Shown here: one piece after another, positions 5,469 through 6,767 of the stretch
Layout: the number at the start of each line of letters is the position of its first letter
Numbering within the stretch: the first letter of the stretch is position 1
Origin: a virus
Taxonomy: Duplodnaviria > Heunggongvirae > Uroviricota > Caudoviricetes
Virus record (IMG/VR): IMGVR_UViG_2718218360_000001
Length of the DNA stretch: 23,550 bases
Strand: one strand, 5' to 3'
Program-made: the position numbers and the translations under genes
Notes under the pieces: model-generated
Database searches by the model: none
Seen by the model: only the letters and a program-made list of their open reading frames with translations
Told to the model about the DNA's origin: nothing

Positions 5469-6767
5469 ATGACGATTGCGAAGGATAGTTCGACTGATGA
5501 AATCATTCATGGAAATGATCTCCGTGGAATGGATGATTTTTACATTAAGACAACGAGTTTTGAATGCCCATACGAGCCTTGTAAAATTAAAGCCACACCT
5601 TGTAGTTTTACTATGAAACATGTTAATCAATCATATTTCAGATATGGCGATAAACATAAGGATGGATGTGGTATTCATGATCCAAGATATAAAAACAATC
5701 ATACTTCAAATGACGAAAGAAAACATAATTCGCCACCTGCTCCGGTTATATCACTTTTAAAAATTGATGTGAAACCAAGAGGTGGTGTTAAAAATGCCAG
5801 AAATATTAAAAATGAAAATCACAAGGATGAAAAAAAAGGTAATGAACATCCTGTATCTTCATCAAGTATTAAGCCAGTCGTTGACTATTACATAAATAAT
5901 AGCAATCATAATGAACAGCTATCAATCCCTCCATATGGCACGCGATCTTATAAAGATACATTTCAACTTATTTTTTACAAAAACAACATACGTTATTACA
6001 AACCTGCTATTTATTATGGTGTAGCCCAGTCTAATATTCGTCTGCATGAAGATTCAGATAAACATTGTATTACTTTCCTCGCAAGGGATAAGAAAACCCA
6101 AAAACCATTTACGCTTGAAATTGATGTTTCTGACTGGAATAAAAGTCAGAAGGATGTGTTTTGGAAGGAATATGAAAAGCAAAGGAAGGAAGCTGATAGG
6201 TATTATAAGGGGCTTAAAGATAAAAGGAATGCTAAAAAATACTTGACGGTTTTCTTTTTTGGGATGCCGGATGAAAATGATAAGTTTCTATTTAAGACAA
6301 ACCACTTTAAATTAGTATATGTGGCTTTCTTGGGTAAATTTGAAAGCTCATATAATGATAGTAATTATTACATTGAAAATGATCTGTCTGTATCATCATT
6401 GAATGAACAACCCATTTCATTATCTGATATAGACCATAAAAATCATGAATATAATATTGAAACTTCATTAGATTTTAGTTCTCCTTTGCCAGAGCCAGAG
6501 CCAGAGCCAGAGCCAGAGCCAGAGCCAGAGCCAGAGCCAGAGCCAGAGCCAGAGCCAGAGCCAGAGCCAGAGCCAGAGCCAGAGCCAGAGCCAGAGCCAG
6601 AGCCAGAGCCAGAGCCAGAGCCAGAGCCAGAGCCAGAGCCAGAGCCAGAGCCAGAGCCAGAGCCAGAGCCAATAAGATCCTCTTTAAAGGAAAATACTGA
6701 GACTGTAGAAATGAACAGTAAAGTTTGGGGGAGGCTGAAAAAGATAATCACTTTCTTTAAAAAGTGA
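5469..6767 (+). CDS. Hypothetical 432-aa protein with Cys/His-rich N-terminus, (Pro-Glu)30 repeat and short basic C-terminal tail
   Basis: Long ORF in AT-rich DNA. N-terminus [15 protein letters not shown]...H...C. Residues encoded by 6489-6668 are a perfect PE dipeptide repeat, then [31 protein letters not shown]. No family recognised. Confidence 0.6.
6489..6668 (+). repeat. Perfect hexanucleotide microsatellite (CCAGAG)x30, in frame within the CDS
   Basis: 180 bp of uninterrupted CCAGAG units read directly; it is the source of the spurious minus-strand GS and AL repeat ORFs. Confidence 0.95.

Follow-up and report, generated by a model that had tools for sequence, protein, structure and literature searches.

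The perfect CCAGAG array found in the window (the whole 23,550-nt stretch of DNA analysed here) can be assigned with high confidence to TR2 / Vhec1 / O157-10, a known hypervariable VNTR of E. coli O157:H7. It consists of pure hexamers placed in frame within ECs_3507, and changes in its length are most likely tolerated and close to neutral. This repeat has long been used as the fastest-mutating tandem-repeat marker for O157:H7 fingerprinting and, in itself, it adds nothing new. The only parts of our results that may merit follow-up are the family context of the carrier protein and a sister locus with an (AEV)n repeat, which raise a testable question about the length of the linker.

Structure and identity of the hexamer array

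The array spans positions 6489-6668 on the plus strand and encodes (Pro-Glu)30. Direct reading gave 30 CCAGAG units with zero variant units, and Tandem Repeats Finder (TRF) delimited the tract at 6488-6671 (period 6, 30.7 copies, 100% matches, 0 indels, score 368). An 18-nt probe made of three units matched the window 28 times and was found 0 times in 100 dinucleotide-preserving shuffles. The initial annotation had described a perfect 180-bp (CCAGAG)30 repeat inside a coding region, and both direct reading and TRF bear out this description. The tract is read as (PE)30 in the plus frame of a 432-aa ORF (5469-6767); the other frames and the opposite strand present only short ORFs that are confined to the repeat. 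The array forms a block of 62% GC within a gene and region of approximately 32% GC.

The identity of the locus was established with the TR2 primers of Noller 2003, which are reprinted in Table 2 of PMC2246123 together with a 6-bp unit, TGGCTC. The primer GGAAGGAAGCTGATAGGT matches the plus strand at 6184-6201 with 0 mismatches, and the primer CGCAGTTGATACCTACGG matches the minus strand at 6788-6805 with 0 mismatches and 0 matches expected by chance. These two sites are convergent and flank the array, with a predicted amplicon of 622 bp (6184-6805). The reverse complement of TGGCTC, GAGCCA, is a rotation of CCAGAG and the published unit therefore agrees with the one in the window. The exact primer sites and the matching unit identify the tract as TR2, which is the same locus as Vhec1 and O157-10 according to Table 1 of PMC3768571 and to PMC2246123. 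The array and the published locus are alike in their primers, their 6-bp unit, their high copy numbers (typically >20) and their extreme polymorphism; we found no differences between them, and none of the results obtained speaks against the identification. The names TR2, Vhec1 and O157-10 reportedly come from the studies of Noller in 2003, Lindstedt in 2003 and Keys in 2005, respectively. Across the MLVA literature that we searched, the locus is treated as an anonymous marker and its carrier protein is not discussed. The initial annotation did not recognise the array as a named and heavily used typing locus.

The initial annotation also considered perfect coding microsatellites to be uncommon in Enterobacteriaceae. 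For O157:H7 this is right only in part, since the serotype possesses a set of such hexamer VNTRs, including TR1 at a distance of 2.7 kb. Indeed, a second hexamer microsatellite, (TATTTC)8.8, is located in an intergenic position at 9326-9378 of the window, 2.7 kb downstream of the array. The TR1 primers match exactly around it (9177-9196 on the plus strand and 9451-9470 on the minus strand) and the TR1 unit AAATAG is its reverse complement, which identifies this second repeat as the MLVA locus TR1 = Vhec4 = O157-9. The TR1 array of the window has one unit less than that of strain Sakai.

Copy-number variation and turnover

A 1.6-kb query around the array matched 314 of the 5426 complete E. coli genomes, overwhelmingly O157:H7, with a single chromosomal site in each; a plasmid search with the same locus query found no plasmid carrying it. 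Based on the match spans of 89 sampled complete genomes, copy numbers range from 8 to 63 in 6-bp steps, and for 86 of the 89 spans the length difference to the window is an exact multiple of 6. Direct counts in O157:H7 gave 8, 17 (EDL933), 24 (Sakai), 24, 30, 32 and 63 units. Outside O157:H7, 19 units were counted in an O121:H19 genome and 13 in the bovine strain NWU_4. All of these directly counted arrays are pure CCAGAG. Copy number differs even between the near-identical genomes of FRIK2533 (16 copies) and FRIK2069 (15 copies), whose chromosomes are 7 bp apart in length.

Mutation at this locus has been measured experimentally. During parallel serial passage, O157-10 mutated at a rate of 1.3-4.8e-4 per generation per strain, and 41 of the 57 VNTR mutations (72%) observed in the passage experiments occurred at this locus (PMC3777172). 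These changes were gains and losses of whole units, and many of them were multi-unit jumps, the largest of 23 units; alleles of more than ~13 units mutated faster, alleles with >22 repeat units are on record, and PulseNet excluded O157-10 because it was too variable within outbreaks (PMC3777172). Simple one-step slippage fits jumps of this size poorly. Field studies reported alleles of 21-45 units (PMC3519732) and found O157-10 to be the most polymorphic locus (PMC3519732; PMC2174234). The range of copy numbers among the 89 genomes, the purity of the arrays and the passage rates all support the ongoing slipped-strand turnover that the initial annotation had proposed. The complete genomes presented neither the invariant copy number nor the degenerate units that it had associated with an old, stable tract or an assembly artefact.

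We infer from the literature that O157-10 changes by slippage. With 30 identical units, the nascent strand could misalign with its template during replication (slipped-strand mispairing), and units would be gained or lost at about 1e-4 per generation. Larger jumps may come from recombination between units, and the same turnover would clear degenerate copies from the array. Since each step would measure 6 bp, the reading frame would be kept and only the number of Pro-Glu dipeptides would change, within a disordered acidic spacer that is predicted to lie between the conserved N-terminal domains and a short C-terminal helix of cationic and amphipathic character. In the RefSeq annotation, the 8-, 17-, 24- and 63-copy alleles all have intact ORFs, as anticipated by the earlier proposal that length changes alter the linker in frame and do not turn the gene on or off. 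From these observations, we infer that changes in array length are most probably tolerated, would be near-neutral and would not work as a switch.

Carrier protein and linker repeats in its relatives

The 432-aa ORF that contains the array (5469-6767, plus strand) is the ortholog of ECs_3507 of strain Sakai, which is annotated as a hypothetical protein; a literature search on "ECs3507" found no papers. Homologs with 34-93% identity were identified in Xenorhabdus, Providencia, Serratia, Pectobacterium, Yersinia, Klebsiella, Citrobacter, Enterobacter, Pantoea and Moritella. The AlphaFold2 (AF2) model has a mean pLDDT of 56, and three parts of the protein are better predicted. The first (aa 1-69, pLDDT 63-76) falls in a Cys/His-rich N-terminus (aa 1-70; 5469-5678, plus strand) in which C33, C38, C45, H63 and C67 are invariant in the family alignment and H70 is nearly so. 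Judging from these conserved columns, aa 1-70 might form a putative zinc-binding module. The second is a conserved beta-rich core with one long helix (aa 163-305, pLDDT 70-90; 5955-6383, plus strand), which weakly resembles an OB-fold. The third is the C-terminal helix (aa 411-431; 6699-6761, plus strand), which is recovered by AF2 and by the alignment and has a hydrophobic moment of 0.55 and a net charge of +6. All full-length relatives have a cationic and amphipathic tail, with similar hydrophobic moment and charge, which could serve in membrane targeting or partner binding. Regions 70-162 and 308-410 have no predicted structure; the latter, which is modelled with low confidence, includes the repeat, which is thus positioned in a predicted disordered linker.

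Similarity searches with the carrier protein returned little. PHROGs gave nothing meaningful, and the one match of a profile search of PDB sequences (E = 0.4) was rejected. Pfam and NCBIfam matches to PARP, TonB, a DnaX linker and ClfB are compositional, fall on the PE tract and are far under their cut-offs. The likeness to the Trypanosoma brucei EP procyclin family (PARP, PF05887) consists of the alternating Pro-Glu tract (32.9 bits versus a cut-off of 100, covering only the repeat), and so does the likeness to the proline-rich region of TonB (NCBIfam TonB, 13.3 bits versus a cut-off of 315, again only the repeat). With such scores and coverage, these matches do not represent homology. In addition, proline is not essential at this position, since relatives possess (QE)n and (AEV)n repeats.

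The core presents a partial and weak match to the PADLOC profile PD-Lambda-4_B (aa 151-284 against positions 161-294 of 303, E = 1e-7, 29 bits). PD-lambda-4 is now named Avs8, and Avs8B, the product of the second gene of this anti-phage operon, is not required for defence, and no function is known for it. Avs8B and the carrier protein are alike in being uncharacterised and in being found on mobile or defence islands. Unlike the Avs8 operon, however, the carrier gene has no adjacent gene for the Avs8A STAND NTPase: we searched the neighbouring genes (two tyrosine recombinases, small hypothetical proteins and a BamE-like lipoprotein) for an Avs8A STAND NTPase / Mrr nuclease and obtained no PADLOC match to Avs8A.

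We then compared the linker across the family using species-representative genomes. The unit CCAGAG was found in Pantoea sp. GD03673 (12.7 units by TRF, with one Pro-Gly interruption), in Enterobacter genomosp. O as (PE)5 and in Xenorhabdus littoralis, whose protein is 99% identical and whose contig stops within (PE)n. Erwinia sp. S63 presents 8.7 units (TRF) of CCTGAG, which also encode (PE)n. In Yersinia, Pantoea ananatis and Xenorhabdus bovienii, short LPEPEP motifs are found ahead of the tail. The ortholog of Pantoea dispersa S68 is 87% identical and contains a CAAGAG array encoding (Gln-Glu)27 with one interruption (L025, 4020-4183), so that proline is replaced by glutamine throughout the array. 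A single C-to-A change that was homogenised array-wide would clearly exemplify concerted evolution of a VNTR in coding sequence.

A different repeat was found in a paralog that is ~61% identical over the N-terminal region and presents the 9-bp unit GCTGAGGTT, encoding (AEV)n, at the equivalent linker position. This paralog was detected in 257 of the 5426 complete E. coli genomes, including CFT073, S88 and ATCC 11775. Its carriers are E. coli B2 strains and E. albertii, in which at least 15.7 units run off the contig; further E. coli examples include CRE287 and MS8345 (loci L015 785-1538, L016, L017 and L010-L012). The gene lies directly upstream of QatABCD and adjoins SMODS/SLATT genes. The (AEV)n arrays are pure, with 5, 24 and 82 units by direct count, and hypervariable, with 40 alleles of 5-82 units in the 53 sampled genomes. 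At L010-L012, three independent draft assemblies present ~95 N at the start of the array (~8990-9085), which correspond to scaffold gaps or repeat masking, and the copy numbers of these three loci are therefore lower bounds. A literature search for the unit GCTGAGGTT found no relevant paper. At least two unrelated repeat units and their derived variants have thus expanded at the same linker position, and this family-level pattern extends beyond the MLVA literature that we searched. The (AEV)n locus, present in many complete genomes such as CFT073 and S88, is a candidate for use as a second typing marker, in this case in extraintestinal E. coli.

It is possible, although we consider it unlikely, that the length of the linker is functional, either because a long or rapidly variable acidic spacer adjusts the distance that can be spanned between the N-terminal part (possibly nucleic-acid-binding) and the C-terminal helix, or because it diversifies the protein in conflicts with phages or mobile elements. 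The recurrence of pure arrays of different units at one position, namely CCAGAG in O157:H7, Pantoea sp., Enterobacter and Xenorhabdus, CAAGAG in P. dispersa, CCTGAG in Erwinia and the 9-bp unit in E. coli B2 and E. albertii, is in line with this possibility, as are the hypervariability of (AEV)n, the weak match of the core to Avs8B and the location of family members beside QatABCD, SMODS/SLATT, OLD-family ATPase and type I R-M genes. However, some full-length relatives have just (PE)2-5, and the array-wide conversion of proline to glutamine is tolerated; both observations weaken the case for a strict structural requirement, and the conversion makes a specific, rigid (PE)n rod less likely. Moreover, a short seed in a disordered linker suffices for mutation-driven expansion, and Avs8B is itself dispensable for defence. 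Selection could explain the recurrent expansions, but mutation pressure that acts on a short seed would be expected to produce them just as well where the linker is unconstrained.

O157-10 would then be one instance of long, pure and hypervariable acidic linker repeats, (PE)n, (QE)n or (AEV)n, acquired and maintained across the family; we hold this broader reading, and the programmed linker-length hypervariability that it would imply if the repeats are selected, to be doubtful. If selection did favour a long or fast-changing spacer, for instance in conflicts with phages or competing elements, the locus would be an example of programmed hypervariability and not a neutral typing marker. The added value of these results is otherwise modest and lies in the carrier protein family, which is conserved, unstudied and located on mobile and defence islands. 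The recurrence of pure repeats at the same linker position in relatives could speak against neutrality.

The in-frame length variation of the array has parallels among other coding VNTRs that are used for typing, such as the Salmonella hexamer repeats STTR5 and STTR6 and the Ser-Asp repeats (R-region) of staphylococcal ClfA and ClfB. In all of them, units that are multiples of 3 bp are found in a coding spacer whose length varies without inactivation of the gene, although the STTR5/STTR6 and ClfA/ClfB proteins are unrelated to the carrier protein. In the Clf proteins, the spacer has been shown to project a surface domain across the cell wall. In contrast, the carrier protein has no signal peptide and no known spacer role.

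Much less probable is that the array acts as a contingency (phase-variation) on/off switch, a reading that we regard as very unlikely. In three of the 89 sampled assemblies, the gene carries a frameshift annotation: one (strain 2149) has a 1-bp deletion within the array and two, the complete-genome assemblies of F1273 and UTME-1, have an A7 tract where the window has A8 (5830-5837, plus strand, inside the same ORF). Gain or loss of a 6-bp unit never shifts the frame, however, as seen in the exact multiples of 6 of the other 86 spans, and 1-bp differences are typical of long-read errors at homopolymers and repeats. The array is also located within the CDS and not in a promoter. The phase-variable contingency locus was therefore rejected as a class for this repeat: its variation entails no shift of frame or of promoter spacing, and ORFs are annotated as intact at 8, 17, 24 and 63 copies. 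The A7 tract could be either a long-read sequencing error or a real second slippage site. In the O157:H7 strain 2149, 23 and 15 units are split by a 5-bp unit (L007, 1490-1722); this array is the only impure O157 array that we observed and may be an assembly error.

Finally, it is extremely improbable that the 30-copy array is a collapsed, expanded or mis-polished product of assembly: short-read assemblies do break at the array and the copy number of any single assembly could be wrong, but the site is present in 314 complete genomes with pure CCAGAG in the arrays counted directly, FRIK804 matches the window along all of the 1601 bp compared, the 30 copies included, and the locus has been sized by PCR and sequenced in many MLVA studies. 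The fragility that the initial annotation had anticipated is evident among the homologs. A 340-aa "partial" product that ends at the repeat makes up the largest protein cluster (1019 members), and the start of the linker is the exact point at which short-read contigs of Providencia, Enterobacter cloacae, Klebsiella aerogenes (two) and E. coli break off. In practice, short-read assemblies break or mis-count at O157-10, and copy numbers should not be over-interpreted epidemiologically.

Genomic setting of the repeat gene

In strain Sakai, ECs_3507 is preceded by two integrase genes, a "DNA-binding protein" gene and two small ORFs and followed by a BamE-like lipoprotein gene and an IS30 remnant; this region is labelled prophage Sp17. 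The gene is carried by an AT-rich integrative element, which in O157:H7 is situated at the edge of this annotated prophage. The module upstream of the repeat gene (window positions 1-5073) is composed of two adjacent tyrosine recombinases, a 543-612-aa protein without Pfam domain and a 132-139-aa ORF, and it is conserved in E. coli NWU_4 (L005), Pantoea ananatis (L014) and Enterobacter cloacae (L019). The elements of NWU_4 and Pantoea ananatis also encode a relaxase and a His-Xaa-Ser (HxsB / HxsD) system, and the carrying element therefore looks like an integrative mobilisable element. The carrier protein is 87-99% identical between O157:H7 and Xenorhabdus littoralis (L024), Pantoea (L022/L025) and Enterobacter (L023). 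Such identity between E. coli O157:H7 and distant genera of Enterobacterales points to a recent horizontal spread of the element.

The window differs from Sakai at two further sites near the repeat gene. A 14-bp tandem duplication (AAATGGTATGGATG x2) at 3738-3767, absent from Sakai, disrupts the reading frame of the ECs_3510 ortholog, which encodes the 543-aa "DNA-binding protein" beside the two integrases, and splits it into two ORFs (2518-3858 and 3759-4163). In addition, an IS3-family insertion, which we take to be IS629-like, is located at 7675-8981 (ORFs 7729-8055 and 8052-8942) within the IS30 remnant and is absent from the Sakai locus.
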